Program-made: the position numbers and the translations under genes
Part shown: piece by piece, positions 28,752 through 47,092 of the stretch
Layout: the number at the start of each line of letters is the position of its first letter
Position numbering within the stretch: position 1 is the first letter of the stretch
NCBI GenBank assembly: GCA_947303055.1
Contig: CAMYXV010000001.1
Coordinates: 3,961 to 67,960 of the forward strand
Origin: an uncultured Bacteroidales bacterium
Lineage (GTDB): Bacteria > Bacteroidota > Bacteroidia > Bacteroidales > F082
Length of the DNA: 64,000 nt
Direction of reading: 5' to 3'
The notes under the pieces: model-generated
The model's input: the letters and a program-made list of their open reading frames with translations, nothing else
The model's database searches: none
Told to the model about the DNA's origin: nothing

Positions 28752-29861
28752 ATGATTCCATTTTTGAGTCTAAAAGATGTCACCGCTTTGCACGGTGATG
28801 AGATTAACGAGGCCGTCACCCGTGTGGTGAATGGCGGCTGGTACCTCCAGGGTGAGGAGAACAAACGCTTCGAAGCCAACTATGCCAACTTCATCGGTGC
28901 CAAACACTGCATTGGCTGCGCCAACGGCTTGGATGCCCTGATTTGGATCTTCCGTGCCTATATCGAGCTGGGTGTGATGCAGCCTGGTGACGAAGTGATT
29001 GTTCCGGCCAACACCTATATTGCCACCATCCTCTCCATTACCGAGAATGGCTTGAAACCCATCTTGGTGGAGCCTAAGTTGAACACCTTGGAGATTGACG
29101 ATGACCTGATTGAAGCCTCCATCACACCTAAGACCAAAGCAATCTGCATTGTTCACCTCTATGGCCGCAATGCCTACACCGACAAGATCGGTGCCTTGTG
29201 CAAGAAATATAACTTGAAACTTATTGAGGACAACGCACAGGCCCACGGATGCAAGCATACCGATGGCCGCACTACGGGTTCCATCGGTGATGCAGCAGGT
29301 CATTCATTCTATCCAGGAAAGAACCTTGGCGCATTAGGCGATGGCGGAGCAGTGACTACCAGCGATGATGCATTGGCTGAAGCTGTCCGTACATTGGCTA
29401 ACTATGGCTCGCAAAAGAAGTATGTGTTCAAATATACAGGTCGTAATAGCCGTTTGGATGAGGTTCAGGCTGCGGTGCTCGATGTGAAGTTGAAATATTT
29501 GGTTGAGGACAATGCTCATCGTAAGCAGGTGGCTAACTACTATTACGACCATATCAGCAACCCGCTGATTACCTTGCCCGACCGCTTGCCCGATGAGCAG
29601 AACGCTTATCACTTGTTCCCGATCCTGGTAGCTGATGGCAAGCGTGATGCCTTGCACGACTATCTGGAGCAGAACGGAGTGGGCACAGTGATTCACTATC
29701 CCATCGCCCCGCACAAGCAGGAGTGCTACAAAGAGTGGAATGGTATGAGCTTCCCCATCACCGAAAGCATTGCCAACGAGGAACTGAGTTTGCCTATCGG
29801 CCCTGCTATTTCTCATGATGAGGTTGCAACTGTTGTCAAACTCATCAACCAATTCAAATAA
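28752..29861 (+). CDS. DegT/DnrJ/EryC1/StrS family sugar aminotransferase
   Basis: GWYLQGEENKRFE, CANGLDAL, and the PLP-Lys context HSFYPGKNLGALGDGGAVTT. Confidence 0.9.
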   Translation: MIPFLSLKDVTALHGDEINEAVTRVVNGGWYLQGEENKRFEANYANFIGAKHCIGCANGLDALIWIFRAYIELGVMQPGDEVIVPANTYIATILSITENGLKPILVEPKLNTLEIDDDLIEASITPKTKAICIVHLYGRNAYTDKIGALCKKYNLKLIEDNAQAHGCKHTDGRTTGSIGDAAGHSFYPGKNLGALGDGGAVTTSDDALAEAVRTLANYGSQKKYVFKYTGRNSRLDEVQAAVLDVKLKYLVEDNAHRKQVANYYYDHISNPLITLPDRLPDEQNAYHLFPILVADGKRDALHDYLEQNGVGTVIHYPIAPHKQECYKEWNGMSFPITESIANEELSLPIGPAISHDEVATVVKLINQFK

Positions 29862-32180: not shown

Positions 32181-32816
32181 ATGAAACATCTAATTATACT
32201 CGGAGCTGGTGGCATGGGACGGCAAGTGCTGTCGTTTGCCAAAACGTGCGATGGTTTTGAAAAAGAATATGACATCAAGGGGTTTCTTGATGACAACCTT
32301 GAAGCTATGAAGGATTTTCCTGGTTATCCCCCTGTACTGGGAACTGTTGATAATTACAAGGTTGAAACCGACGATGTGTTTTTCAACTCTATCGGTGACG
32401 TGCAGTCCAAGAAACGCTGTATCAACAAGATTCTTGCCAAGGGCGGCGATTTCATTACCTTGGTTCATCCCACGGCACAGGTGTCGCCTGGGACTAAGAT
32501 AGGAAAAGGTTGTATGATCGGCTCTTTGGTGGGCATTGGGGTGGAGACAACTATTGGCGATTTCTGTCTGATTCAAAGCAAGGCAACCATTGGTCACGAT
32601 GTGCATATTGCTGATTATGCCAGGATAGATTGTAATGTGGTGCTGATAGCAGGAGTCTATGTGGGTAATGACGTTTGTATCCATACATCGTCTGTCATCA
32701 ATCACAATGTGAAAATTGCCGATGGTGCAACAGTGGGGGCTATGAGCTTTGTTATCAGAAACGTTAAAGCGGGTCAAACCGTATTTGGTAATCCGGCAAA
32801 AAAAATACTTGAATAA
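32181..32816 (+). CDS. NeuD/PglB-type sugar N/O-acetyltransferase (left-handed beta-helix)
   Basis: LIILGAGGMGRQV Rossmann-like N-terminus followed by hexapeptide repeats. Confidence 0.8.
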   Translation: MKHLIILGAGGMGRQVLSFAKTCDGFEKEYDIKGFLDDNLEAMKDFPGYPPVLGTVDNYKVETDDVFFNSIGDVQSKKRCINKILAKGGDFITLVHPTAQVSPGTKIGKGCMIGSLVGIGVETTIGDFCLIQSKATIGHDVHIADYARIDCNVVLIAGVYVGNDVCIHTSSVINHNVKIADGATVGAMSFVIRNVKAGQTVFGNPAKKILE

Positions 32817-33559
32817 TGAATAATCCGTTTTCACTTGAAGGTAAAACCCTGTTGGTAACAGGCTCGTCATCCAACATCGGCAGGAAAATTGCTATCCGTT
32901 GTGCTGAGATGGGTGCCAAGATAATTGTTGTGGCCAGAGACGAAGAGCGCATGAAAGCCACTGTGGCTGATTTGGCTGGCAATGGTCACCAGTATTACGC
33001 TGTTGACTTGTCGAATGCTGAGTCAATTGCTAATTTGGCTGAGGTATTGCCTGTGTTGGATGGCGTTGTGCTTTGTGCTGCAAGGTTCGACAGTACTCCT
33101 GTTAAGAACATCAAAAGAGAATTGGTGCAGGATATGTTCAACACCAACACTTTCGCCAACTTCGACCTGATACAGAAACTGCTGAAGAAGAAAAAAATCA
33201 ACAAGGGAGGCTCCATCGTCTTCATATCTTCGGTTGCATCCATGCGACCCTATAAAGGCAATTCGTTGTATTCAGCGACCAAAGGAGCAATTAATTCGTT
33301 CTCCAAAGTGTTGGCAACCGAATTGGGTTCGCAAAGAATTAGAGTAAACTGCGTCCATCCAGGCATTGTGCCTCGTGATGGTGGTGTACGTGAGGGCGCA
33401 TTGACCGTTGAGCAGCAAAGAGAAGAAATGGCAAAATTCCCATTGGGTATGGGTGAGACAGACGATATCGCTTACGCTTCAGTTTATCTGCTCTCTGACG
33501 TTTCTAAATGGGTAACGGGTATCGACCTGATAGTGGACGGTGGACAATCATTAATTTGA
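32816..33559 (+). CDS. SDR family oxidoreductase (3-oxoacyl-ACP reductase-like)
   Basis: TGSSSNIGRKIA and YSATKGAINSF (YxxxK). Confidence 0.85.
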   Translation: MNNPFSLEGKTLLVTGSSSNIGRKIAIRCAEMGAKIIVVARDEERMKATVADLAGNGHQYYAVDLSNAESIANLAEVLPVLDGVVLCAARFDSTPVKNIKRELVQDMFNTNTFANFDLIQKLLKKKKINKGGSIVFISSVASMRPYKGNSLYSATKGAINSFSKVLATELGSQRIRVNCVHPGIVPRDGGVREGALTVEQQREEMAKFPLGMGETDDIAYASVYLLSDVSKWVTGIDLIVDGGQSLI

Positions 33560-33581
33560 AGAAATAAAAAATAATCTAATT

Positions 33582-34520
33582 ATGAAAGCATTTATTTTCC
33601 CTGGCCAAGGATGCCAGAAAGAAGGAATGGGTAAGGATTTATATGAAAACTTCCCCAAAGCGAGAGCAATCTTTGAACAAGCTAATGACATCTTAGGCGA
33701 GCGTTTTAGTGATACGTTATTCACTGCATCAGAAGATTTACTGATGGACACTCGCTATACCCAGATGGGCGTATTTATCTATGAGTGTGCGCTTGCTATG
33801 GGACAGGATGAAATAAGACCCGACTGTGTGGCTGGTCACTCTCTTGGAGAATATGCCGCATTGGTGGTTTCTGGCGTGCTGTCATACGAAGAGGGCGTTA
33901 AGTTTATCAAGAAACGCGGAGAGGTATTCTATGAGGCATTCCAGAAGCACCCCAGTGCCATGGGGGCTATTATTGGTATTTCTGAAGAGCAAGTGTTAGA
34001 AGTGTTGAAACGTGTGACAGAAGAAGATAACGAAAACCTCTATATTGCCAATTATAATGGCCCAGGACAATTAGTGATTACGGGTGCAAGGGGTTCGGTG
34101 AAGAAAGCATGCAAGATATTCAAGGAGATGGGAGCCAAGCGAGCCTTAGTATTGCCTCAGAAGGGTGTAGGACATTCACCAAACTCGGCAGAAGAAGGAG
34201 CTATTCTTGGTGAAGAGTTGAAGAAACTGCATTTCCGTGAGGCTCAGATACCTATTTATCAGGATGCCGATGGTTTGCCACACACTGATCCACAAGAGAT
34301 TCTGGAGAATCAGATTAAGTTGATGACTTATCCTGTGCAGTGGACCAATATCACGTTCAATATGGTGAAAAACGGTGTGAACGAATTCTATGAGTGTGGT
34401 ACAGATGACACACTCCAGAAAATTATAAAGAGAATGACCCCAGAGTCTCTAGTCACTTCGTTGGTTCATACCCCCATCTATGAAGGAAAAGTTCAAGATT
34501 TCGCGATAGTGAAAGAATAG
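33582..34520 (+). CDS. ACP S-malonyltransferase-like acyltransferase (divergent FabD paralogue)
   Basis: FPGQGCQKEGMG and GHSLGEYAAL. Confidence 0.8.
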   Translation: MKAFIFPGQGCQKEGMGKDLYENFPKARAIFEQANDILGERFSDTLFTASEDLLMDTRYTQMGVFIYECALAMGQDEIRPDCVAGHSLGEYAALVVSGVLSYEEGVKFIKKRGEVFYEAFQKHPSAMGAIIGISEEQVLEVLKRVTEEDNENLYIANYNGPGQLVITGARGSVKKACKIFKEMGAKRALVLPQKGVGHSPNSAEEGAILGEELKKLHFREAQIPIYQDADGLPHTDPQEILENQIKLMTYPVQWTNITFNMVKNGVNEFYECGTDDTLQKIIKRMTPESLVTSLVHTPIYEGKVQDFAIVKE

Positions 34521-34551
34521 TTTATTTATTAACACTTTAAATCATTAAACA

Positions 34552-34779
34552 ATGACATTAGATGAATTTGTAAAGGCATTCGCTGCCGAGTTCGATGACA
34601 CTCCTGAGGAGACCTTCAAGCCCGAAACTCATTACAGAGAGCTGGACGAGTGGGGTTCACTGGTGGCCTTGTCAATCATCTCCATGGTTGACGACGAGAT
34701 GGACAAGCGCGTTACTGGCGCTGACCTGCGTAACTGCACCACCATAGAGGAACTCTATAACCTCGTGGAGTCAAAGTAA
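34552..34779 (+). CDS. acyl carrier protein
   Basis: 75 aa acidic protein. Candidate phosphopantetheine Ser in LDEWGSLVALSII. Confidence 0.7.
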   Translation: MTLDEFVKAFAAEFDDTPEETFKPETHYRELDEWGSLVALSIISMVDDEMDKRVTGADLRNCTTIEELYNLVESK

Positions 34780-34852
34780 AACCAAACTTTGGGAAGCACA
34801 CATCCAAACCGTGTGTGTGCTTCCCTTTATTCCAAAATGTTAATCTGATTAT

Positions 34853-35920
34853 ATGTCATCAATTAGTGTAAAAAACATAGCCATCAAAGGTATGGCAGGT
34901 TGTGTGCCGGAACGTGTGGAGGAAAACCGCAACTATCCGGGCATGACGGCTGAAGAAATTCAGAAATATATTGCAGCCACTGGTGTGGAACGTCGCCATT
35001 GCGCCATTCACGACGGTAGCATCTGCACCTCTGACCTCTGTCAGAAGGCTGCTGAAAAGTTATTGACTGACCTTGGTTGGGATAAGAGCGAGATTGATCT
35101 ACTGATTTTTGTTTCTCATACCACCGATTATAAACTGCCTGCCACAGGCATTGTGTTGCAGGACAAAATGGGCATCCCTACTTCGTGCCTTGCTTTCGAC
35201 ATTACCCTTGGTTGCTCCGGCTTTCTGGTAGGGCTTGGTGTGATGGGCAACCTTATGGCCTCTGGCTCGTTTCGCAAGGGTCTTCTCATGGTGGGCAACA
35301 CTCAGTCGGAATATGCCAGCCCCGAAGACCGCAGCATGAAGCTGTTGCTTGGCGATGCCGGTACTGTAACCGCCATTGAATACGACCCCAACTCGAAAGA
35401 TGAGGTCAATATTACTTATATGTCCGATGGCTCTGGCCGCCAATTTGTTATCCTTCCCGATGGAGGTTCACGTAATCCTGTCAACGAGAAATCGTTCATC
35501 ATGGAAGACTGTGGTGGCGGCATCCGTCGTACGCGCCTGCACGAAAAGATGATTGGCGACGAGGTGTTCTCCTATGGCACCCACTTCATCCCGAAGGTGT
35601 ATGAGGAGATGCGTTCGAAGTTCAATATCGAACCTGACGAGGTGGACTACCTGCTGCTGCATCAGGCCAACAAGTTCCTTTGCGAGAAACTGCGCAAGAA
35701 ATTGAAATTCCCGCCCGAGAAGGTGCCTTACAACATTCAAGAGTTTGGCAATACCAGCGGTGCTACCATTCCGTTGCTGATGATTACGGAATTGCAGAAA
35801 GAGCTTTACGACCGTCAGCTGAATATGCTTGCCGCCACCATTGGTGTGGGCTTCTCGCTTGGCGTGGCCCAAATCAAGACCCATGGCGGTATTATTGTTC
35901 CCGATTTGATGTATTTGTAA
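34853..35920 (+). CDS. 3-oxoacyl-ACP synthase III (FabH-like)
   Basis: Cys-His-Asn triad contexts DITLGCSGF, LLHQANKF and FGNTSGATIP. Confidence 0.85.
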   Translation: MSSISVKNIAIKGMAGCVPERVEENRNYPGMTAEEIQKYIAATGVERRHCAIHDGSICTSDLCQKAAEKLLTDLGWDKSEIDLLIFVSHTTDYKLPATGIVLQDKMGIPTSCLAFDITLGCSGFLVGLGVMGNLMASGSFRKGLLMVGNTQSEYASPEDRSMKLLLGDAGTVTAIEYDPNSKDEVNITYMSDGSGRQFVILPDGGSRNPVNEKSFIMEDCGGGIRRTRLHEKMIGDEVFSYGTHFIPKVYEEMRSKFNIEPDEVDYLLLHQANKFLCEKLRKKLKFPPEKVPYNIQEFGNTSGATIPLLMITELQKELYDRQLNMLAATIGVGFSLGVAQIKTHGGIIVPDLMYL

Positions 35921-35921
35921 T

Positions 35922-36665
35922 ATGAACAATCCGTTTACTTTAGAGGGCAAGACTATTCTTGTCACAGGAGCCTCGTCTGGTATTGGACGTGGCATCTGCA
36001 TCGACTGCTCCAAGATGGGAGCCAAGGTTCACCTGATGGCACGCAACGAGGAACGTCTGAACGAAACCCTTGCCCAGATGGAAGGCGAGGGACATGTGAT
36101 ACATAAGGCAGACTTGTGCAGCACGGATGACATCAACGCTTTGGTGGATGAACTGCCTGTGATTGACGGTGTGGTGCTGTGTGCTGGCATCATCAAGACC
36201 ATGCCTGTGAAGAACATCAGCGAAGAGGCCATGACCGAAATCTTCAATGCCAACATTATGGGCGACATCAAGATTTGCAGTCGCCTGTTGAAGAAGAAGA
36301 AACTGAACCATGGCGGTTCGGTGGTGTTTATCTCATCGGTTTCCACATTCAACGTGAAGGTGGGCAACTCGCTCTATTCAGCCACCAAAGGCGCGGTCAA
36401 CTCGTTTGCCAAGGCGATGGCTTTGGAGGTATCGAAGCAGGAGATGCGTGTCAACTGCATCCAGCCGGGCTTTGTGCCGTCAAGCATTTTGAGTAGTGGT
36501 GCCATTGAGGAAGATGCCTTCCTGAAGTTCTATGCCGAGCGTCATCCGCTGGGCTTCGGCACGCCCACTGACATTGCCAATGGTTGTATCTATCTCTTGT
36601 CCGATGCCTCGCGTTGGGTGACGGGCAGTATTTTTACCATCGATGGAGGATATACTCTGCAATAA
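35922..36665 (+). CDS. SDR family oxidoreductase
   Basis: TGASSGIGRGI and YSATKGAVNSF. The N-terminus MNNPFTLEGKT is paralogous to 32816 and 39668. Confidence 0.85.
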   Translation: MNNPFTLEGKTILVTGASSGIGRGICIDCSKMGAKVHLMARNEERLNETLAQMEGEGHVIHKADLCSTDDINALVDELPVIDGVVLCAGIIKTMPVKNISEEAMTEIFNANIMGDIKICSRLLKKKKLNHGGSVVFISSVSTFNVKVGNSLYSATKGAVNSFAKAMALEVSKQEMRVNCIQPGFVPSSILSSGAIEEDAFLKFYAERHPLGFGTPTDIANGCIYLLSDASRWVTGSIFTIDGGYTLQ

Positions 36666-37332
36666 CATCAAGGTGTTGAGCTTTGTCAATGCTCCTGTTC
36701 CTTCCAACACGTTTTTGCTTGTTCGGGAGGATGGGCATTGCATTGTCATCGACCCCGGCACCAAGGAACAAGCCGATGTGCGTGACTATATCCAGTCACA
36801 CGGTCTGACGCTTGACTATATCATCCTCACACACGAACACTTTGACCATTGTTGGGGTGTGAATTACCTGCTTGACTGTTTCCCGTCAGCCAAGGTGGTG
36901 GCCACCAAGTTGTGTACCGAATGGGTGCAAACCCCGATGAACTATTTCAACCAGCTGTATTACAACTCCGATGAGATGTACCAAATCAAAAAGGTGGATG
37001 TGATTGTGGATGAGGTGGGCTGGAAGTTGATGTGGGGCGATAATCCTGTCGTGTTTGTCAACACCCCCGGCCATACCAGCAAAGGAATGTGCATAGAAAT
37101 AGGGGGTTGCCTGTTTACTGGCGACACCGTCTTATATCGTACTAAGCCGTTTATCAAGAAACGTTATGGAGGCTCGCTGCCAGTGTTGAAACAGAGCATT
37201 GATACCATATACCACTCTTATTCGGGCGATACCAAGGTGTTTCCTGGTCATGGAGATTCATTCCTGTTGAAAGAAACTAAAGAATTTTATTATAAATATT
37301 TTAACGACAAGAAAGATGAAATGTCTGATTGA
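36643..37332 (+). CDS. MBL-fold metallo-hydrolase
   Basis: ILTHEHFDHCWG (HxHxDH) and FPGHGDSF. Confidence 0.8.
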   Translation: MEDILCNNIKVLSFVNAPVPSNTFLLVREDGHCIVIDPGTKEQADVRDYIQSHGLTLDYIILTHEHFDHCWGVNYLLDCFPSAKVVATKLCTEWVQTPMNYFNQLYYNSDEMYQIKKVDVIVDEVGWKLMWGDNPVVFVNTPGHTSKGMCIEIGGCLFTGDTVLYRTKPFIKKRYGGSLPVLKQSIDTIYHSYSGDTKVFPGHGDSFLLKETKEFYYKYFNDKKDEMSD

Positions 37333-38347
37333 TAACATTGATATTAAGTGTATCGCAACCTGCTTGCCCGAAGGCATACTCGAAATGTCTTCATTGAAAG
37401 AACGTTTTGGTGAAAAAGCAGTGGAAGATACCGTTAAAGGCAGTGGCATTGAACGTTTGCATGTGGCTGCCGATCATGAAACCACGGCCGATCTGTGTGA
37501 ACGTGCCGCAAACAATCTGTTCGAAGCCACAGGATTTGACAGAAATGAAATTGATGGAGTGGTGTTTGTGTCGCAGACCATGGATTACTTCAACCCTGCC
37601 ACCTCATGTGTATTGCAGGGCAAACTGGGGTTGCCTGAAGAGTGTGTTTGCTTTGACATTGCATACGGTTGCAGCGGCTATATCTATGGCATGTTCCAAG
37701 CAGCCGTTTTGATTAGCTCAGGTGCTTGCAAGAATGTGCTGGTGCTGGCTGGCGACACCAATTCAAAAATGGTGGACAAAAACAAACATTCGTCGCTGAT
37801 GGTGTTTGGCGATGCCGGTTCGGCCACATTGGTCTCCAAAGGCGAAAACAAAATGGGATTCCATATTTGCTCTGATGGCTACAACTACCAGACGGTGCTC
37901 AACGACAGAATGGGATTCCGCAAATTCCCAGAGAATACCCGTCCGGACTATCAGCCTGACCCTGCCATGAGTGGTGACGACGTGTTCAGCTTTATCGTGA
38001 ATGTGGGGCCAAAGACCATCAAGACCGTAATCGAACTGATGGGTTGGGACAAGGACGATGTGGACTTCTTCGGCCTGCATCAGGCTACCAAAATCACTGT
38101 CGATTTCATGCGCAAGAAACTGAAACTGGCGCATCCCGAAAGGGCTCCGTTCGACATACAGAACTATGGCAACACAGGTCCTACCACCGTGCCGATGGTG
38201 CTGACCGACTACCCGCATCGTGCCGAGGGTATAGACACCTCCTCTTGGAACAAGGTGGTCATGGCCGCCTATGGTGTAGGACTTTCGTGGGGCAGTGTGG
38301 CCTGTGACTTGTCGAAGACATTGATACTTAAACCGATTAATCAATAA
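37316..38347 (+). CDS. 3-oxoacyl-ACP synthase III-like
   Basis: DIAYGCSGY, GLHQATKI and YGNTGPTTVP. Confidence 0.8.
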   Translation: MKCLIDNIDIKCIATCLPEGILEMSSLKERFGEKAVEDTVKGSGIERLHVAADHETTADLCERAANNLFEATGFDRNEIDGVVFVSQTMDYFNPATSCVLQGKLGLPEECVCFDIAYGCSGYIYGMFQAAVLISSGACKNVLVLAGDTNSKMVDKNKHSSLMVFGDAGSATLVSKGENKMGFHICSDGYNYQTVLNDRMGFRKFPENTRPDYQPDPAMSGDDVFSFIVNVGPKTIKTVIELMGWDKDDVDFFGLHQATKITVDFMRKKLKLAHPERAPFDIQNYGNTGPTTVPMVLTDYPHRAEGIDTSSWNKVVMAAYGVGLSWGSVACDLSKTLILKPINQ

Positions 38348-38379
38348 ATTCAATTATTAACAATTAAATATTTAGAGTT

Positions 38380-38610
38380 ATGGAATTAAAAGATTTTATT
38401 GCAAACTTTGCAGAACAGTTTGACGAAACCGACGTTAACGAATTCAAGCCCGAAACCGTTTTCCACGATTTGGAAGAGTATTCATCACTGGTAGCCCTTT
38501 CCATCATTGCCATGATCAACGAGGAGTATGACGTTACTCTCAAAGGTGATGACATGAGCGCAGCCGTGACCATCGAAGATCTTTTCAATATCGTTAAAAG
38601 CAAGATGTAA
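38380..38610 (+). CDS. acyl carrier protein
   Basis: 76 aa. LEEYSSLVALSIIAMINEE is paralogous to 34552-34779. Confidence 0.7.
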   Translation: MELKDFIANFAEQFDETDVNEFKPETVFHDLEEYSSLVALSIIAMINEEYDVTLKGDDMSAAVTIEDLFNIVKSKM

Positions 38611-39671
38611 TGGCTTTCTTAGAAGTTAAAAACGTCAGAATTGCCGGTATGAGTGCCGGTGTTCCCAAGCGTGTCATCAACAACATGGAGCAGTTTAACG
38701 ATTACTCCAAGGATTATGATGCCGCAGCGTTTGTGGAACAGACCGGTGTGCTGGAACGCAGAGTGGACAACATTCCCACTTCCGACCTCTGTGTTCCAGC
38801 TGCCGTGCAGCTAATGAATGACCTGGGTTGGGAGAAGGCCGATGTGGATGCGGTGCTTTTTGTGTCGCAAAACACCGACTATATCCTTCCTGCCACCGCT
38901 TGCATTGTGCAGGAACGACTTGGCCTGAGCAAGGAATGTTATGCCATGGACATTGCCATGGGATGCTCGGGCTGGGTTTACGGCCTCAGTGCTGCCTTGT
39001 CGTTGATGCAAGGAGGAACCATAAAGAAAGCTCTGTTGATGTGCGGCGATGCCAAGCGTCGCTCGCAATACGACGGTCCGCTGTTTGGCTTTGCCGGAAC
39101 GGTAACGGCATTGGTGTATGATGAAGGTTGCAGTAGCATCAAGTTCCATCTGGGAACAGATGGCGGCAGCTATGATGCCATCATCATCCCAGACGGCGGT
39201 GCCCGCAACCAGGTTACACCCAAGTCGTTCGAACTGGAAGAGTTCGATGGCAAGATGGTACACCGTCTGGAAAGCCGTATGAAAGGCATGGATGTGTTTG
39301 CTTTCGGTATCTCAACCGTGCCGAAGTCGGTGAAGCAGCTGTCAGAACACTTTGGAATAGACTATCAAGATGCTGACTACTATGTGTTCCATCAAGCCAA
39401 CATGAAAATGAACAACATGATTATGAAGAAGCTGAAATTGCCGCAGGAGAAAGTGCCGTCGTGCATGTACTGGTTTGGCAACACTTCTTCAGCGTCTATC
39501 CCTTTGACCATCGTCACCCAATTGGGTGATAAATGCCAAGACCACAAGCGATTCCTTTGTTGCGGTTTCGGTGTGGGATTGTCGTGGGGTACGGTCGTGT
39601 TTGAAACTGACAACCTGGTGCTTTCAAAATTAGTTGAAGTTGAAGAAGACAAAAATACAAAATGGGTATGA
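38610..39671 (+). CDS. 3-oxoacyl-ACP synthase III-like
   Basis: DIAMGCSGW, VFHQANMK and FGNTSSASIP. Confidence 0.85.
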   Translation: MAFLEVKNVRIAGMSAGVPKRVINNMEQFNDYSKDYDAAAFVEQTGVLERRVDNIPTSDLCVPAAVQLMNDLGWEKADVDAVLFVSQNTDYILPATACIVQERLGLSKECYAMDIAMGCSGWVYGLSAALSLMQGGTIKKALLMCGDAKRRSQYDGPLFGFAGTVTALVYDEGCSSIKFHLGTDGGSYDAIIIPDGGARNQVTPKSFELEEFDGKMVHRLESRMKGMDVFAFGISTVPKSVKQLSEHFGIDYQDADYYVFHQANMKMNNMIMKKLKLPQEKVPSCMYWFGNTSSASIPLTIVTQLGDKCQDHKRFLCCGFGVGLSWGTVVFETDNLVLSKLVEVEEDKNTKWV

Positions 39672-40417
39672 GTTATAATCCTTTTTCACTTGAGGGCAAG
39701 ACTATTCTTGTCACAGGCGCATCATCGGGCATTGGCCGTGGTGCCGCCATCGAATGCGCTAAGATGGGCGCAAAAGTCATCATTACAGCCCGTAATGAGG
39801 ATCGCTTGAAAGAAACCTTATCGCAATTGGAGGGTGAAGGACACGTGATGCGTGTTTGCGACCTTACCGACAACGAGGCCATCAAGGAGATGGTCAACAG
39901 CCTGCCTGAATTGCAAGGCGTTGTCAACAATGCAGGTTTCACCACCATCCAGCCCATACCTTTCATCAACGAGGAGGAGTTTCTCAAAATCATGCAGGTA
40001 AATACCATGGCACCTGTGTTGACATTGAAATACCTGATGAAGAAGAAGAAACTGAAATCAGGTGCTTCTGTTGTTTTCACCAGTTCATTAGCTGGTATTG
40101 GTACCATGTCGGTGGGCAATACCATGTATGGTTGTAGTAAGGGAGCTATCAGTGCCTTTATCAAAGGTGCTGCAAAGGAATTGGCTGCCAAGAACATTCG
40201 AGTGAATGCCGTGTGCCCCGGTCTGGTTGACTCCCAAATATTGGCATCGGGAACCATTACCGACGACCAATTGAAAAAGACTTTGGAATTGTACCCTCTT
40301 GGCCGTTCTGGCAAACCTGAAGACGTAGCTTGGGCTATGGTGTATTTGCTTTCGGATGCCTCCAGCTGGATTACCGGTGTGAACCTGCCCGTTGACGGAG
40401 GCCGTGAACTTTATTGA
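39668..40417 (+). CDS. SDR family oxidoreductase
   Basis: TGASSGIGRGAA and YGCSKGAISAF. Start chosen at MSYNPFSLEGKT (ATGA overlap with the upstream stop, matching the paralogue N-termini). An alternative ATG lies at 39662. Confidence 0.85.
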   Translation: MSYNPFSLEGKTILVTGASSGIGRGAAIECAKMGAKVIITARNEDRLKETLSQLEGEGHVMRVCDLTDNEAIKEMVNSLPELQGVVNNAGFTTIQPIPFINEEEFLKIMQVNTMAPVLTLKYLMKKKKLKSGASVVFTSSLAGIGTMSVGNTMYGCSKGAISAFIKGAAKELAAKNIRVNAVCPGLVDSQILASGTITDDQLKKTLELYPLGRSGKPEDVAWAMVYLLSDASSWITGVNLPVDGGRELY

Positions 40418-40430
40418 TAAATGAATAGCG

Positions 40431-41546
40431 ATGGCATTTTATAATTTACCAAACATTAGAATAGCGGCAGTGGCATCGGCTGTGCCGACCGAGGTGGTGA
40501 AACTGGAGAGTTTTGCCGACAAGTTCGGTGCTGACTATGTTGAAAAATACAAAGAGCAGACTGGTGTTCAACAGTTCAGAAAGACTCGCGAGCACCAGAC
40601 CGCTTCCGACTTGGCTTTTGCTGCGGCAGAGAATATTATCAACACCAAGGGCATTGACCGCGAATCGATAGGTGCGCTGGTCTTCATAGCCCATTCCAAG
40701 GACTATTGGCGTCCCGCCACGGCCTGTGTGCTTCACAAGCGGCTAGGGCTGAACAAGGATTGTGCTGCTTTCGACATCAGCTTGGCTTGTTCGGCAGTGC
40801 CTTACGGCATGTATGTGGTGGGGTCAATGATGATGACTTCCGATATTGACCGTGCATTGCTGCTGGTGGGTGAGACCCCACAGAAAATTACCAATCCTGA
40901 TGACAAGTCATCGTGTATGCTGATTGGCGAGGGCGGTGGTGCTTTCCTCTTGGAGAAGAGCAATGCCGAAGGTGCCGGCATCAGTGGCATTTGCCGTTCA
41001 TTCGGCCAAGGCTACAATGCCATTATTATGCCCGGTGGTGGCTTCCGAAACCCTAATCCGCCAACGGAAGAGTATGTGTGGAAAGACGGCAACCGTCGTT
41101 CGATGTATAACGTGATGATGCGGGGCGAGGACGTTTTTGCCTTCACCATTTCCGACATACCCAAGACTATCAAGGAGTATTTGGCCAAGGTGGAAAAAAC
41201 GGTTGAGGACTTCGACTGCTTGGCAGTCCATCAGGCCAATAAGTTCATCCTCCAGATGCTTTGCAAGAAGCTGAAAGTGGGGCAGGAGAAGATGCCGATG
41301 TGTCTCGATCGCTACGGCAACACTTCGGCAGCATCCATCCCTATGGTGCTGGGCGATGTGTATGGCAATAGAGATGATGCAAAAGACATCAATGTTTTGA
41401 TGAGCGGTTTTGGTGTAGGTTTGAGTTGGGGCGTTTGCTCTGCAAAGATCTCTCCAAAAGACATTCTGCCCATCATTGAAACGGACGAAATCTTTGAAGA
41501 GGGTATCATCAACACACCAGAGGATTATTATAACTTAAGCAAATAA
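40431..41546 (+). CDS. 3-oxoacyl-ACP synthase III-like
   Basis: DISLACSAV, AVHQANKF and YGNTSAASIP. Confidence 0.8.
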   Translation: MAFYNLPNIRIAAVASAVPTEVVKLESFADKFGADYVEKYKEQTGVQQFRKTREHQTASDLAFAAAENIINTKGIDRESIGALVFIAHSKDYWRPATACVLHKRLGLNKDCAAFDISLACSAVPYGMYVVGSMMMTSDIDRALLLVGETPQKITNPDDKSSCMLIGEGGGAFLLEKSNAEGAGISGICRSFGQGYNAIIMPGGGFRNPNPPTEEYVWKDGNRRSMYNVMMRGEDVFAFTISDIPKTIKEYLAKVEKTVEDFDCLAVHQANKFILQMLCKKLKVGQEKMPMCLDRYGNTSAASIPMVLGDVYGNRDDAKDINVLMSGFGVGLSWGVCSAKISPKDILPIIETDEIFEEGIINTPEDYYNLSK

Positions 41547-41554
41547 AGAAAAGT

Positions 41555-42460
41555 ATGAACATCAAGAAAGCCATAAGTGAGGCAAAGAGTATCATCAATG
41601 CTGACAACATCATACTGTACTTTCCCAACGTCAAGGCGAAAGAGCATCGGGTGAACCTGCATGTTTCGGATATGAAGCAGAAGGGGGATGTGGATGCCAA
41701 TGATGAAACACGAAACGCTTATAACCTCGGAGACTATTTCGGGGTTATTGTTGTGAATTGGATGCTTCAGCGAAAAGGGCTTTCTCTTGATGACTATGTG
41801 GAGAAGAAGAAGCATCTTTTGACGGTAGGTTCCGGGGCAGTGAAGTCCTATCAGAACATGACCATTTGGGGGTCTGGTGTTGAAAGGGAATTGCCACAAA
41901 GGTTCAGAAGGTTCTTCCAAAAGAGTTGGTATAGGAAGCTGGACATCCGTGCCGTTAGAGGTCCCAAGTCAAGAGAGTATTTGATGAGACTTGGACACAA
42001 AGTACCTGAGGTATATGGTGACCCTGCCATATTGATGCCGCTGATTTACAGTGATTTAACGGGGGGTAATGAGGGGTATGATATTTCCATTATCCCTCAG
42101 TTAGTTACAGAGAAGGGCATTCGGGAAAAATATCCCGATGCCCACATTATCAGCATGAATACTAATGACTACAAGAGTGTCATAGACCAGATTGTTCAAA
42201 GCAAGTTGATTATCAGTTCCTCACTGCATGGTGTGATTCTGGCAGATGCATACGGGGTGCCATCTGTATGGTATCGCGGTCTTGGTAAAGACATCGACTT
42301 CAAGTATCTGGATTATTACGCCAGTACGGACAGAAAGCCAGAGACAATACCGACAACGATAGAAGAGGCAATGAACACCAAACCATTGCCACTACCTGAT
42401 TTGAAACCTTTACAAGAAGGATTGTTGAAATCGTTCCCATACGATTTGTGGGATAAATAA
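41555..42460 (+). CDS. polysaccharide pyruvyl transferase family protein
   Basis: IISSSLHGVILADAYGVPSVW. Confidence 0.7.
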   Translation: MNIKKAISEAKSIINADNIILYFPNVKAKEHRVNLHVSDMKQKGDVDANDETRNAYNLGDYFGVIVVNWMLQRKGLSLDDYVEKKKHLLTVGSGAVKSYQNMTIWGSGVERELPQRFRRFFQKSWYRKLDIRAVRGPKSREYLMRLGHKVPEVYGDPAILMPLIYSDLTGGNEGYDISIIPQLVTEKGIREKYPDAHIISMNTNDYKSVIDQIVQSKLIISSSLHGVILADAYGVPSVWYRGLGKDIDFKYLDYYASTDRKPETIPTTIEEAMNTKPLPLPDLKPLQEGLLKSFPYDLWDK

Positions 42461-42467
42461 TAAAAAC

Positions 42468-43331
42468 ATGGCAAAAGCATACGTATTCCCCGGTCAGGGA
42501 GCCCAGTTCGTAGGCATGGGCAAAGACCTCTATGAGAGCAATCCCAAAGCCAAAGAATTGTTCGACAAAGCCAACGACATACTTGGCTACCGTATCACCG
42601 ATATTATGTTTAATGGTGACAGCGATGACTTGAAACAAACCAAAGTCACCCAACCTGCCGTCTTCCTGCATTCAGTTATCTCGGCACTGTGCATGGAAGA
42701 TTTCCACCCCGATATGGTGGCCGGTCACTCCCTTGGCGAATTTTCGGCTTTGGTGGCCGCTGGCGCATTGACCTTCGAGGATGGTCTCCGCTTGGTATAT
42801 GCCCGTGCCATGGCTATGCAGAAAGCTTGCGAAGCTGCACCATCAACCATGGCAGCCATCATCAATCTGCCAGATGAAACCATCGAGAAGGTTTGTGCTG
42901 AGCTGAGCAAGGATGGTCAAGTGGTAGTCCCAGCCAACTACAACAGCCCCGGTCAAGTGGTCATCTCTGGAAATGTGGAGGCCATTAAAGAGGCTTGTAC
43001 CAAGCTAAAAGAGGCTGGTGCAAAACGTGCTTTGCCTTTGGCTGTGGGTGGCGCATTCCATTCACCGCTGATGGAGCCAGCCCGCATTGAGTTGGCTGCT
43101 GCTATCGAGAAAGCCCCAGTGAGCAAATCTATTTGCCCTGTGTACCAGAATGTGGATGCATTGCCGCATACCGACCCAGTGGAAATTAAGGACAACCTGC
43201 TGAAGCAGTTGACCGCCCCCGTCCGCTGGACTCAGAGCGTCATCAACATGATTAACGACGGCATGACCGAGTTTGTTGAGTGCGGTCCAGGCCAGGTGTT
43301 GACGGGGTTGATTGGTAGGATAATGAAGTAA
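42468..43331 (+). CDS. fabD: malonyl-CoA:ACP transacylase
   Basis: FPGQGAQFVGMG, GHSLGEFSAL and GGAFHSPLM. Canonical FabD length. Confidence 0.9.
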   Translation: MAKAYVFPGQGAQFVGMGKDLYESNPKAKELFDKANDILGYRITDIMFNGDSDDLKQTKVTQPAVFLHSVISALCMEDFHPDMVAGHSLGEFSALVAAGALTFEDGLRLVYARAMAMQKACEAAPSTMAAIINLPDETIEKVCAELSKDGQVVVPANYNSPGQVVISGNVEAIKEACTKLKEAGAKRALPLAVGGAFHSPLMEPARIELAAAIEKAPVSKSICPVYQNVDALPHTDPVEIKDNLLKQLTAPVRWTQSVINMINDGMTEFVECGPGQVLTGLIGRIMK

Positions 43332-43342
43332 ATAATAAGACT

Positions 43343-43951
43343 ATGTATAAACACTTTTTCAAGAGGGTTTTAGATATCCTCATATCAGGTATTGCCTTAT
43401 TGTTAATTGGCTGGTTCTTGATTATTGTCACCATTTTCCTTCACTTTGCGAACAAGGGGGCTGGTGCTTTCTTTTTCCAAGAACGACCGGGTAAGAATGC
43501 CAAGATTTTCAAAGTCATCAAGTTTAAGACCATGACTGATGAACGTGATGAAAATGGTAATTTACTGCCTGATTCACTGCGATTGACAAAAGTTGGGAAA
43601 TTTGTGCGCAGCACGTCTGTTGATGAGTTACCTCAGTTGATCAACGTTTTCAAAGGTGACATGTCGTTGATTGGCCCTCGGCCATTGTTGGTGCAATACC
43701 TGCCATTATATTCTCCAGAGCAGGCACGTCGTCATGAAGTGCGACCGGGCATCAGCGGCTGGGCACAATGTCATGGCCGCAACGCCATCAGCTGGAAAGA
43801 AAAGTTCGCATTAGACGTTTGGTATGTTGACCATTGCACTTTTTGGACAGACATCCGCATTATATTCATCACCATCAAGAACGTGTTACAACGCAAGGAT
43901 ATTGACTTTGACGGTGCTGCTGAATTGAAAGCGTTTGATGGAACGAACTAA
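43343..43951 (+). CDS. undecaprenyl-phosphate sugar-phosphate transferase (bacterial sugar transferase family, initiating enzyme)
   Basis: One N-terminal transmembrane helix, DELPQLINVFKGDMSLIGPRP and RPGISGWAQ. Confidence 0.9.
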   Translation: MYKHFFKRVLDILISGIALLLIGWFLIIVTIFLHFANKGAGAFFFQERPGKNAKIFKVIKFKTMTDERDENGNLLPDSLRLTKVGKFVRSTSVDELPQLINVFKGDMSLIGPRPLLVQYLPLYSPEQARRHEVRPGISGWAQCHGRNAISWKEKFALDVWYVDHCTFWTDIRIIFITIKNVLQRKDIDFDGAAELKAFDGTN

Positions 43952-43974: not shown

Positions 43975-44892
43975 ATGAAAGGTATAGTATTAGCAGGCGG
44001 CAGTGGTACCCGCCTTTATCCAATTACAAAAGGAGTTAGCAAACAGTTGCTTCCTATTTATGACAAGCCGATGGTGTATTACCCCATCTCGGCCTTGATG
44101 CTGGCGGGCATTCGTGACATCCTCATCATCAGCACGCCTTACGACCTGCCGGGCTTCCGCCGTCTGCTGGGCGACGGCTCGGACTACGGTGTGCATTTCG
44201 AGTATGCCGAGCAGCCTTCACCCGACGGCCTGGCACAGGCATTTATCATCGGTGAGAAGTTCATCGGCAACGACAGCGCTTGCCTGGTTTTAGGCGACAA
44301 CATTTTCTATGGTGCCGGTTTTACCACCCTGCTCCGCAATGCCGTGAAGGATGCCGAGGAGAACAAGAAAGCCACCGTGTTTGGCTACTGGGTGAGTGAC
44401 CCCGAACGTTACGGTGTGGCGGAGTTCGACCGCCAGGGCAACTGCCTCAGCATTGAGGAGAAACCCAAGGAGCCCAAAAGCAACTACGCCGTGGTGGGCC
44501 TCTATTTCTACCCCAACAAGGTGGTGAACGTGGCCAAGACCATCAAGCCCTCTGCCCGTGGCGAACTGGAAATCACCACGGTGAACCAAGAGTTCTTGAA
44601 AGACGGTGAACTGAAAGTCCAAGTCTTTGGCCGTGGCTTCGCATGGCTTGACACGGGTACGCATGATTCGCTTTCAGAGGCATCGACCTTCGTGGAGGTG
44701 ATCGAGAAACGCCAAGGCCTGAAGGTGGCTTGCTTGGAAGGCATCGCCTACCGTAATGGCTGGATCACGGAAGAAAAGATGCGCGAGCTGGCCAAGCCGA
44801 TGCTGAAGAACCAGTATGGGCAGTATCTGCTGAAGGTAATTGAGGAGAAGAAAGCGGAGATAGACTCGGATTCGTTCCGCTACACTGAATAA
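43975..44892 (+). CDS. rfbA: glucose-1-phosphate thymidylyltransferase
   Basis: [26 protein letters not shown], and full RfbA length. Confidence 0.95.
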
Positions 44893-45802: not shown

Positions 45803-47092
45803 ATGTCAGAAAGAAAACGTATTTATCTCTGCCTCGCCCACATGTCGGACGAAGGCCTTGAACAAAAGTATATCAAAGAAGCATTCGACACCAATTGGGT
45901 GGTGCCGCTTGGACCGAACGTTAACGGATTTGAAAAGGACCTCGAGGAATTCGTGGGTCAGAACAAAAGGGTAGTGGCCTTGTCTGCAGGTACTGCTGCT
46001 GTACATCTGGCTTTGATTGCCTGCGGTGTGAAGTCTGGTGATGAAGTGTGCGTGCAGAGCTTCACTTTCTGTGCTTCGTCGCACCCGATTACTTATCTGG
46101 GGGCTACACCAATCTTCATCGATAGCGAGAAGGATACCTGGAATATGGATCCGGAACTGCTGGAAGAGGCCATTAAAGATCGTATTGCCAAGACGGGCAA
46201 GAAGCCAAAAGCGATTGTCCCTGTGGCTTTGTATGGAATGCCTTATCAGATTGATAAGATTATGGCCATTGCTGAGAAGTATGATATTCCAGTTGTCGAG
46301 GATGCTGCCGAGGGCTTCGGTAGCCGCTGGAAAGGTCAGGTACTGGGCACCTTTGGTAAATACGGTGTACTATCGTTCAATGGCAACAAGATGATTACCA
46401 CTTCTGGTGGCGGTGCTCTGGTGACCGCCAACGAGGACGAGTGGCGCGAGATTATGATGTATGCCACGCAGTATCGCGAGAGCTATCCTTATTATCAACA
46501 CGAGAAGATTGGTTTCAACTACCGTATGAGTAACATCTGCGCTGGTATCGGCCGTGGTCAGATGACGGTGGTGAATCAGCACATAGAACACCACAAACAC
46601 GTACAGGCTCTTTACGAGGAGCTGCTGGCTGGCGTGCCCGGCATCGCCGTGCATTCGCAGCCTAAAGGTCACACAGATAGCACAGATAACACAGATAAGG
46701 TTCCTGTCTTCGACAGTAACTATTGGTTATGTACCATAACCCTTGACCCCTTGCTCCGCATCAAAGGTCAGGAGAACGCCTACAAGACCATCGTGACCGG
46801 TGCCGTGGGTGGCGCTGCCGGTGTGATTCATGCCGCTTCGTCAGCTGTTACGAACTGCCAGCCTAACGACAACGTTGAAGCACTCCGCGTCTTCATGGAT
46901 GCCGCTGGCATTGAGGCCCGTCCCGTGTGGAAGCCCATGCACAAGCAGCCAGTCTATAAGAACTGCCCCGCCTATGTCAATGGCGTTTCAGAGGCCATTT
47001 TCAAAGTGGGTATGTGTTTGCCTGCCGGACCGTATGTGAGCGACGAGGATGTGAAGTATATTGTAAGCTGCATCAAAGATGCAATTAAGTAG
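45803..47092 (+). CDS. DegT-family PLP-dependent sugar aminotransferase
   Basis: Start at MSERKRIYLCLAHMS (the track ORF from 45677 overlaps the previous gene). LSFNGNKMITTSGGGAL carries the PLP Lys. Paralogue of the gene starting at 62983. Confidence 0.85.
   Translation: MSERKRIYLCLAHMSDEGLEQKYIKEAFDTNWVVPLGPNVNGFEKDLEEFVGQNKRVVALSAGTAAVHLALIACGVKSGDEVCVQSFTFCASSHPITYLGATPIFIDSEKDTWNMDPELLEEAIKDRIAKTGKKPKAIVPVALYGMPYQIDKIMAIAEKYDIPVVEDAAEGFGSRWKGQVLGTFGKYGVLSFNGNKMITTSGGGALVTANEDEWREIMMYATQYRESYPYYQHEKIGFNYRMSNICAGIGRGQMTVVNQHIEHHKHVQALYEELLAGVPGIAVHSQPKGHTDSTDNTDKVPVFDSNYWLCTITLDPLLRIKGQENAYKTIVTGAVGGAAGVIHAASSAVTNCQPNDNVEALRVFMDAAGIEARPVWKPMHKQPVYKNCPAYVNGVSEAIFKVGMCLPAGPYVSDEDVKYIVSCIKDAIK
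46672..46697 (+). repeat. in-frame 9-nt tandem repeat CACAGATAn x3 inside the aminotransferase gene
   Basis: CACAGATA at 46672, 46681 and 46690, encoding TDSTDNTDK. Confidence 0.8.

Follow-up and report, generated by a model that had tools for sequence, protein, structure and literature searches.

A fatty-acid-synthase-like module rich in KAS III enzymes in a Bacteroidales surface-polysaccharide locus, probably dedicated to hydroxyacyl groups on an amino sugar

Hydroxyacyl groups on bacterial amino sugars have been linked to small, dedicated sets of acyl-assembly genes. The viosamine island of Pseudomonas syringae pv. tabaci comprises vioA, vioB, vioS, vioR, acp, vioM, and vioT and accounts for the N-(3-hydroxybutanoyl)-2-O-methylviosamine attached to flagellin. 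N-(3-hydroxybutanoyl)viosamine is lost when vioR or vioB is deleted, and the same island holds vioS, encoding a 3-ketoacyl-ACP synthase III (KAS III), and acp, encoding an acyl carrier protein (ACP) (PMC3927599). In Flavobacterium psychrophilum, wfpC and wfpE (KAS), wfpD (ACP), wfpF (reductase), and wfpG (a PglD homologue) were proposed to place 3,5-dihydroxyhexanoyl on Qui2NAc4N (Cisar et al. 2019, PMC6519341), an assignment that was made by correlating genes with structure, without enzyme assays. The Vibrio cholerae O100 O-antigen, as summarized in the passage of PMC12024518 that cites Perepelov et al. 2019, carries (R)-3-hydroxybutanoyl on Fuc4N and 3,5-dihydroxyhexanoyl on QuiNAc4N. In this study, a module of this kind was analyzed in an uncultured Bacteroidales bacterium of the F082 lineage (assembly GCA_947303055.1), within 64,000 nucleotides of contig CAMYXV010000001.1 (positions 3,961 to 67,960), hereafter the window. 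The module spans positions 32181-43331 of the window, where 14 co-directional, tightly packed genes lie within a surface-polysaccharide locus of the Wzx/Wzy type. The principle and the minimal parts list of such a system are already published, and the window contains an expanded version.

The module is read here as a private fatty-acid-synthase-like, or type II polyketide-synthase-like, line without dehydratase or enoyl reductase, in which KAS III enzymes alone would carry out condensation and hydroxyacyl chains would be N-linked to a 4-amino-4,6-dideoxy-HexNAc. A probability of roughly 0.65 is assigned to this reading. By analogy with the described systems, the chains would most likely be 3-hydroxy or polyhydroxy acyl groups of C4 to C10. 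A preliminary description of the window, made from its letters and open reading frames (ORFs), had already proposed that short 3-hydroxyacyl groups are built on private ACPs and passed to amino sugars, and enzyme content, gene linkage, and the two published systems (PMC3927599, PMC6519341) support this proposal. Families, catalytic residues, operon-like packing, synteny, purifying selection, and orthogroup structure were all observed directly and are presented below.

All genes between 27229 and 47092 are encoded on the plus strand, and intergenic spacing between 31108 and 47092 ranges from -23 to +73 nt. The 14 genes follow the order NeuD-SDR1-FabDa-ACP1-KAS1-SDR2-MBL-KAS2-ACP2-KAS3-SDR3-KAS4-PyrL-FabDb, with SDR for short-chain dehydrogenase/reductase and MBL for metallo-beta-lactamase. 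The preliminary description had counted twelve consecutive genes of the fatty-acid-synthase type; they are co-directional and overlapping as it said, but the span holds 14 genes and PyrL stands between KAS4 and FabDb. As it also said, neither a hotdog dehydratase nor an enoyl reductase was found among the ORFs between 27229 and 47092. No elongating KAS I/II (FabB/FabF) was found in the locus, where all condensing enzymes are of the KAS III type, so that elongation would fall to the KAS III paralogues. Housekeeping fabD and fabH are located on other contigs of the same genome (C36 and C47, respectively), and the FabD and KAS copies of the locus are therefore extra. The earlier statement that the window lacks a phosphopantetheinyl transferase gene holds for the full 64 kb, and one of the Sfp/AcpT type is located on contig C41 of the same genome.

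The four condensing enzymes are encoded by KAS1 (34853..35920), whose orthogroup is that of the set termed cassette A, KAS2 (37316..38347), KAS3 (38610..39671), and KAS4 (40431..41546). Each matched PF08545 (ACP_syn_III) and PF08541 (ACP_syn_III_C) above the cut-off. Against NCBIfam FabH they reached 191-221 bits at a cut-off of 249, and because these scores lie below the cut-off the four are not regarded as housekeeping FabH, to which they are 25-29% identical. Cys121, His270, and Asn300 (KAS1 numbering) are invariant columns when the four proteins are aligned, and they match the corresponding motifs in solved homologues of FabH. The sequence contexts reported earlier for this triad were largely recovered, with GCSG in three proteins and ACSA in KAS4, HQANK or HQATK, and F/YGNTS/G, but KAS3 reads HQANM. 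In condensing KAS III enzymes, the Asn serves decarboxylation, and KAS III enzymes are normally pure initiators. When a joint profile of KAS1-KAS4 was run against the PDB, FabH-like chains came out on top (4efi with 324 bits, true FabHs with 170-215 bits), PqsD, OleA, and CorB scored far below the FabHs, and no chain named CerJ or DpsC was among the 60 matches listed.

The same joint profile was used to search 400 Bacteroidales species genomes. From this survey 60 loci were retrieved (loci are designated by L and a number), their gene content was mapped by tblastn with cut-offs of 1e-4 and 60% coverage, and trees of the KAS and SDR proteins were built. The outgroup of the KAS tree was a FabF-like ORF from the housekeeping locus, adjoining fabH on contig C47, and its root was therefore not interpreted. 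A phylogeny of the four KAS III proteins had been suggested in the preliminary description; in the tree they fall into four separate, well-supported orthogroups, each present in other loci, and their joint profile is nearest to the FabH type. KAS1 and KAS3 belong to one superclade and KAS2 and KAS4 to another. The KAS1 clade includes members from L003, L004, L010, L011, L013, L080, and L082, the KAS2 orthogroup from L077, L079, and L090, and the KAS4 orthogroup from L004, L008, and L010, while KAS3 groups with L014 as sister to the copies of genomes G001 and G149. Beyond the survey, KAS2 was found in at least 120 metagenome clusters at 67-94% identity, and KAS4 had 3336 homologues, of which the named ones belong to Prevotella and Bacteroides. 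Judged from the tree, the four KAS genes are old and not recent duplicates. The 'threefold KASIII-SDR iteration' of the preliminary description was not borne out, and recent tandem duplication of KAS-SDR pairs is ruled out by the separate orthogroups of the four KAS and three SDR proteins, which are combined differently elsewhere. A pairing rule by which loci with two KAS genes would hold one from each superclade was also ruled out, as both same-superclade combinations (A+A, B+B) and the mixed one (A+B) were seen in the tree.

That at least one of the KAS III paralogues is instead an ACP-dependent acyltransferase acting on a sugar, for example on the 3-amino sugar considered below, is unlikely, although KAS III-like acyltransferases are established. 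Such an activity would fit the count of four KAS to three reductases, the separation of KAS2 and KAS4 from KAS1 and KAS3 in the tree, and the fact that no transferase for the second amino sugar was seen in the window. However, the full Cys-His-Asn triad is kept in all four, including the decarboxylation Asn. True FabHs received 170-215 bits from the joint profile and none of the 60 matches listed was a chain named as a KAS III-like acyltransferase. The KAS4 type is moreover the sole KAS in L008, where it must condense if a chain is made at all.

The three reductases are SDR1 (32816..33559), SDR2 (35922..36665), and SDR3 (39662..40417), which matched adh_short_C2 with 153, 159, and 185 bits, respectively. 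The shared NPF(S/T)LEGKT start and YxxxK motif noted earlier are present in all three sequences, as are the Ser of Ser...YxxxK and an Arg after strand 2, which suggests use of NADPH. They form separate orthogroups in the SDR tree. Orthologues of SDR1, a 3-oxoacyl reductase-like protein, occurred only directly after NeuD-type genes (L077 and L079 by tree, L154 and L155 by tblastn), the orthogroup of SDR2, the cassette A ketoreductase, follows KAS1, and that of the SDR3 ketoreductase accompanies KAS4-type or ACP2-type genes.

Both carriers contain a PP-binding domain and the paralogous motifs described before, WGSLVALSII in ACP1 (34552..34779) and YSSLVALSII in ACP2 (38380..38610), so that the serine stands in GSL or SSL rather than in DSL. 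ACP1 has 75 aa; ACP2, which had been given the same length, has 76. Two FabD-like malonyl-CoA:ACP transacylases are present, one divergent and one canonical, as stated earlier. FabDa (33582..34520) scored 240 bits against TIGR00128, below the cut-off of 260.9, and FabDb (42468..43331) scored 336 bits, above it; their identities to the housekeeping FabD are 39 and 65%, respectively. Both retain the oxyanion-hole Gln, the Ser of GHSLGE, the Arg that binds the malonyl carboxylate, and the His. The FabDa-type gene is always directly upstream of ACP1-type genes, and FabDb was the best match in only one other surveyed locus at the tblastn cut-offs (L139, 52%). The motif 'GVGH' of FabDa was considered as a sign of another extender unit and dropped, since two solved FabDs already differ from one another at that position.

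The core of the module is conserved as a block. The segment 34536-41547, from the start of ACP1 to the stop of KAS4, is colinear as one piece with the Prevotella metagenome contigs L002 and L003, and with L009, a Prevotella metagenome-assembled genome (MAG) from water-buffalo omasum, from within KAS1, where the L009 contig begins. Compared with these three, the DNA of the block is 80% identical and its proteins are 91-97% identical, except for the MBL protein with 79%. Synonymous divergence (dS) is saturated, nonsynonymous divergence (dN) is 0.01-0.05 (0.13 for MBL), and dN/dS ranges from 0.009 to 0.075, with 0.009 for ACP1 against L003. The block is a real selected unit under strong purifying selection. 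In the flanks of L002 and L003, SDR, FabD, and PyrL are only about 50% identical to those of the window, a mosaic behaviour typical of capsule loci.

Beyond this block, the parts recur in different combinations. The metagenome contig L154 repeats the order NeuD-SDR1-FabD-ACP1-KAS1-SDR2-MBL-KAS2-ACP2-KAS3-SDR3-KAS4-PyrL at 72-93% protein identity (FabD 52%), with a DegT2 orthologue (85%) directly after PyrL. The cultured Parabacteroides faecis JCM 18682 (L011) shows BacT-NeuD-FabD-ACP1-KAS1-SDR2-MBL, a gap, and then a DegT-type ORF with 31% identity to DegT1, and a Bacteroides MAG (L008) shows BacT-NeuD-ACP2-SDR-SDR3-KAS4...DegT2 with its KAS4-type gene as the only KAS. L004 and L010 have SDR3-KAS4-FabD-ACP1-KAS1-SDR2-MBL-PyrL with a single ACP, and L077, L079, and L155 have NeuD-SDR1-KAS2-FabD-ACP-ACP-SDR-KAS followed by further enzymes. 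The four KAS proteins of the window belong to a derived clade, members of which occurred in 19 of the 400 sampled genomes. A single locus with four such KAS was seen in the window's genome alone, and three other species of the same genus had only the housekeeping FabH. The commonest high-scoring match in the survey was a plain ACP-KAS III-SDR triad. In the one such locus examined (L113:3352-16930, G083:C2), the neighbours are two acyl-AMP ligases, one of them fused to a carrier domain, a family 2 glycosyltransferase (GT2), GNAT, a sulfotransferase, a flippase, MBOAT, and a TPR/PMT-like protein. Because this context is different, the plain triad was not counted as the same system, and counting all high-scoring KAS matches in the 400 genomes was dropped.

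The acceptor is suggested by the first gene of the module and by the genes that flank it. The NeuD/VioB/PglD-type sugar N-acyltransferase (32181..32816) matched TIGR03570 with 173 bits, above the cut-off, and contains PglD_N and Hexapep domains. Its nearest solved structure is VioB (7txp, 1e-31), followed by PglB, PerB, and PglD, all N-acyltransferases of 4-amino sugars. Its stop codon overlaps the start of SDR1, and the two genes are predicted to be translationally coupled; orthologues at 60-78% identity precede SDR1 orthologues in L077, L079, L154, and L155 (70% in L155). Directly 3' of the module lie genes for a PglC-like initiating phosphoglycosyltransferase (43343..43951; Bac_transf, 199 bits), RmlA (43975-44892), FdtA with two domains (44899-45792), and the DegT-family aminotransferase DegT2 (45803..47092), for which the nearest solved structures are of PglE (1o61, 4ztc; 5e-81). 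Orthologues of DegT2 (79-85%) flank the module in L077, L079, and L154, orthologues of the PglC-like enzyme (63-86%) adjoin NeuD-type genes in L011, L077, and L134 (85% in L077), and PglF-like genes stand beside the module in L079; neither DegT2 nor the PglC-like protein had a match in the stretch of L155 covered. A PglF-like gene of 643 aa is located on contig C29 of the window's own genome. Given the resemblance of NeuD to VioB/PglD and of DegT2 to PglE, the PglF-like gene on C29, and the linkage to the module, the acceptor is most likely UDP-4-amino-4,6-dideoxy-HexNAc, the sugar with which the PglC-like enzyme would start the repeat unit.

With RmlA and FdtA, a second aminotransferase, DegT1 (28752..29861), would make up another amino-sugar route in the same locus, leading to a dTDP-3-amino-3,6-dideoxyhexose. 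DegT1 is of the QdtB/WlaRG-like 3-aminotransferase type, with 7n63, 5u1z, and QdtB 3frk as the nearest solved structures (1e-104 to 1e-120), and it stands upstream of the module together with glycosyltransferases, two further pyruvyltransferase genes, and an ATP-grasp gene (27229-28464). The FdtA gene encodes 297 aa with two FdtA (WxcM C-terminal) cupin domains and without the acetyltransferase half. No RmlB was found above the cut-off in this 58%-complete MAG, which makes its absence uninformative.

Two amino-sugar pathways in one locus also allow for two acyl products. It is possible that two lines run in parallel, ACP1-KAS1-SDR2 and ACP2-KAS3-SDR3, each with a further KAS (KAS4 and KAS2, respectively) and its own FabD, and that they supply two hydroxyacyl groups, such as C4 and C6 or two C6, to the PglE-type 4-amino sugar and to the QdtB-type 3-amino-3,6-dideoxyhexose; we hold this only tentatively. 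The gene order indeed shows two ACP-KAS-SDR triads and two FabDs, and the set in the window equals an L004/L010-type set plus an L077/L079-type set (NeuD-SDR1-KAS2-FabD-ACP-ACP2-SDR3-KAS). V. cholerae O100, in the account given in that part of PMC12024518, bears two hydroxyacyl groups on two amino sugars. In opposition, the locus holds a single NeuD-type transferase, and the nine-gene stretch between ACP1 and KAS4, both included, moves as a unit. Two ACPs with one NeuD-type gene are common (L077, L079, L084, L085, L155), so that two ACPs need not mean two products. The evidence on one chain versus two chains fits either.

The two remaining genes of the module, MBL and PyrL, bear on how the chain leaves its carrier. 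The MBL-fold hydrolase (36643..37332; Lactamase_B, 91 bits; motif HEHFDH) is glyoxalase-II-like. Its nearest solved relatives include hydroxyacylglutathione hydrolases, and its PDB and NCBIfam matches, among them a weak one to SolJ in NCBIfam, are weak (35-61 bits) and lie mostly in the N-terminal third. Judged from its family, an editing or release thioesterase is the best guess for this protein. PyrL (41555..42460) is a short PS_pyruv_trans-like protein that matched PF04230 with 63 bits over residues 102-240. Its AF2 model (pLDDT 94) gave weak GT-B and Pvg1p fold matches, with a TM-score of about 0.4 for Pvg1p. The gene stands after the module in the window, L002/L003, L004, L010, and L154, it is complementary to NeuD in a few loci, and homologues at 42-46% identity stand in loci without KAS genes. 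Its link to the acyl module is uncertain, and a minority reading assigns it a part in product attachment.

On that reading, the chain would not be N-linked by NeuD: MBL would free a hydroxy or oxo acid, and either PyrL would attach it as an ether- or ketal-linked O-substituent or an ATP-grasp ligase as an amide. In its favour, MBL follows SDR2 in every cassette A locus in which the contig continues (L003, L004, L009-L013, L154), PyrL comes after the module in five independent contexts apart from that of the window, and L002/L003, L004, and L010 carry ATP-grasp genes and no NeuD-type gene in the stretches covered. The window has an ATP-grasp gene as well, and Bacteroides fragilis PS A2 bears an ether-linked 3-hydroxybutanoic acid on heptose (PMC12648304). 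However, both the window and L154 have NeuD coupled to the module, tblastn with cut-offs of 1e-4 and 60% coverage gave no match to the window's ATP-grasp gene in L004 or L010, and use of a 3-oxo or 3-hydroxy acid by a PF04230 enzyme has no known mechanism. PyrL homologues without any KAS or ACP gene and fold matches that are generic for GT-B and pyruvyltransferase-like proteins suggest that the adjacency may be positional. PyrL as the dedicated transferase of the module was accordingly not supported, with homologues in KAS-free loci and no specific function from PDB sequence or fold searches, and release of a free acid for such attachment is considered quite improbable.

A thioesterase-like gene beside a complete loading, condensing, and reducing set could also release an acid as a diffusible small polyketide or lipid unrelated to the polysaccharide. 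This is very improbable, as the module lies among co-directional glycan genes in every context seen, in the window is coupled to the gene of a sugar N-acyltransferase, and has no regulator or exporter of its own.

The preferred reading, N-linkage of hydroxyacyl chains to the 4-amino sugar, can be laid out as a series of steps taken from the functions of the families, which also supply the proposed substrates, chain length, enzyme order, MBL role, and acceptor sugar. FabDa and FabDb would load malonyl onto ACP1 and ACP2, and a KAS III would join a short acyl primer, most likely acetyl-CoA, to malonyl-ACP. An SDR would reduce the 3-oxo group with NADPH, and further KAS III paralogues would prime the next round with the 3-hydroxyacyl thioester. 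Since nothing dehydrates, every round would leave a hydroxyl, and the products would be 3-hydroxybutanoyl, 3,5-dihydroxyhexanoyl, or longer polyols, with C10 as the maximum if the four KAS acted in series. MBL would most likely be a thioesterase, with the task of clearing ACP thioesters or releasing them. The NeuD-type enzyme would acylate UDP-4-amino-4,6-dideoxy-HexNAc, made by DegT2 and the PglF-like dehydratase from the other contig, at its 4-amino group with the completed chain, and the PglC-like transferase would then start the repeat unit by moving this acylated sugar to undecaprenyl phosphate. An extreme version, in which the 13-gene stretch NeuD to PyrL is a non-iterative, trans-acting line that uses each KAS once, shuttles the chain between the two ACPs, and N-links a C10 group of the 3,5,7,9-tetrahydroxydecanoyl type to the first capsule sugar, is regarded as doubtful. 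If it were true, it would amount to a 'modular polyketide synthase' of free-standing FabH-like parts and, to our knowledge, to the longest polyketide-like decoration on a bacterial glycan.

Several observations weigh against N-linkage to the 4-amino sugar. L002 and L003, whose block is the closest relative of the one in the window, have no NeuD-type gene in the stretches covered and instead carry ATP-grasp and C-C lyase genes upstream, so that transfer by NeuD is not universal. The NeuD-type gene of L139 adjoins a DegT1-type gene, and the acceptor could therefore be a 3-amino sugar; no QdtC/FdtC-type N-acyltransferase for that sugar was found in the locus. The need for a thioesterase beside an acyl-ACP-dependent transferase is not obvious, three reductases face four condensing enzymes, and one KAS paralogue could still be an acyltransferase even with Cys-His-Asn kept. 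The source genome is a Prevotella-like MAG of 58% completeness, and none of the Bacteroidales loci of this type has a known product.

Further features of the window and of the related loci were recorded. The largest gap within the module, 73 nt between ACP1 and KAS1 (34780-34852), contains a hairpin at 34796-34818 with no clear T-run, which might adjust the ratio of ACP to enzyme transcripts. Counts from a promoter and terminator scan were near the shuffled expectation and therefore uninformative; the scan modelled promoters of the sigma-70 type, from which Bacteroidota promoters differ. An Rfam scan of the window gave no match. The window has three genes of the pyruvyltransferase family (18478-19533, 20357-21406, 41555-42460) along with the PglC-like/PglE-like pair (43343-43951, 45803-47092), which presumably resembles WcfS/WcfR of the B. 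fragilis capsular polysaccharide PSA. A 4-amino group left free would make the polymer zwitterionic, an outcome that competes with acylation of that amine by NeuD. At 57409-58380, 3' of NACHT/TIR defence genes, a protein with leucine-rich repeats (LRR) and a TIR domain is encoded, followed by a TPR protein and an FRG-domain protein, which may constitute a further defence module.

Some related loci have additional genes around the module. L154:1-15100 (metagenome contig ERZ28653765 scaffold_117) has six KAS III genes in one polysaccharide locus, and its upstream extras are two KAS III, one SDR, a long pyruvyltransferase, and a FrhB/Fer4-type protein. In L004:2777-21158 and L010:715-16964, both without a NeuD-type gene, the module is present in its two-KAS form. 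Its companions there are an ATP-grasp ligase, a C-C bond lyase (PF15617), MmgE/PrpD, a class-I fumarase-like hydratase of two subunits, a 2-hydroxyacid dehydrogenase, and two proteins of about 300 aa without family, a set that resembles a route to a substituent of the branched hydroxy-dicarboxylic acid type. In L077:14321-19974 and L079:13500-20206, relatives of the KAS2-type module come with AMP-binding ligases, additional carrier proteins, an HMGL-like aldolase, a DHQ-synthase-like protein, GFO/IDH/MocA enzymes, and a split transketolase or LuxC/LuxE-type reductases; these extras point to a much wider acyl-decoration chemistry.

What is new in the window is the size of the set and the finding that its four KAS III belong to ancient, separately reused orthogroups under strong purifying selection, along with the regular MBL hydrolase, the FabD-like loaders, the two ACP types, and the combinatorial spread through Bacteroidales capsule loci. 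These parts, with KAS III in four orthogroups, the reductases in three, the ACPs in two types, and the FabD-like loaders and MBL beside them, behave as a combinatorial toolkit shuffled between loci, with sets ranging from one KAS (Parabacteroides faecis) to six (the metagenome contig L154). Capsule chemistry largely governs how phages, the immune system, and neighbouring microbes see Bacteroidales, and almost none of it is known for Prevotella. If each added KAS stands for one hydroxylated C2 unit, gut and rumen bacteria would have a polyketide-like surface-sugar code that can be read from sequence. The module also offers a test case for KAS III enzymes as elongators and for the need for two carrier proteins.

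Compared with type II fatty acid synthesis (FabD, AcpP, FabH, FabG, FabZ, FabI, FabB/F), the module has FabD-, ACP-, FabH-, and FabG-like parts with intact catalytic residues but lacks the dehydratase, the enoyl reductase, and KAS I/II. PqsD, PqsE, and PqsBC of Pseudomonas aeruginosa likewise combine KAS III-type enzymes with an MBL-fold thioesterase on short thioester intermediates, but they use anthraniloyl substrates, yield a quinolone, and have no ACP or glycan context; PqsD and PqsC were among the weaker PDB matches of the KAS profile, with scores far below FabH. V. cholerae O100, compared by chemistry alone, has one repeat unit with two hydroxyacyl groups on two amino sugars, as two parallel lines would produce. 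The wfp genes are from the same phylum and follow the same logic, in which a polyhydroxy acyl chain comes from several KAS III enzymes in a set that has no dehydratase. A transferase of the PglD type takes part, as does a bacillosamine-type acceptor that involves PglE, PglF, and PglC functions. They comprise two KAS, one reductase, and one ACP, their C6 product is known, and they are likened to KAS1-KAS4 by gene content, not by sequence. In the viosamine island, too, a sugar aminotransferase is adjoined by a KAS III, a 3-oxoacyl reductase, a private ACP of small size, and an acyltransferase of the NeuD/PglB/VioB family. It has one KAS, one reductase, one ACP, no FabD, and no MBL, and makes a C4 group for a flagellin glycan, whereas the set in the window, within a Wzx/Wzy-type locus, comprises four KAS and three reductases as well as two ACPs, two FabDs, and an MBL hydrolase.

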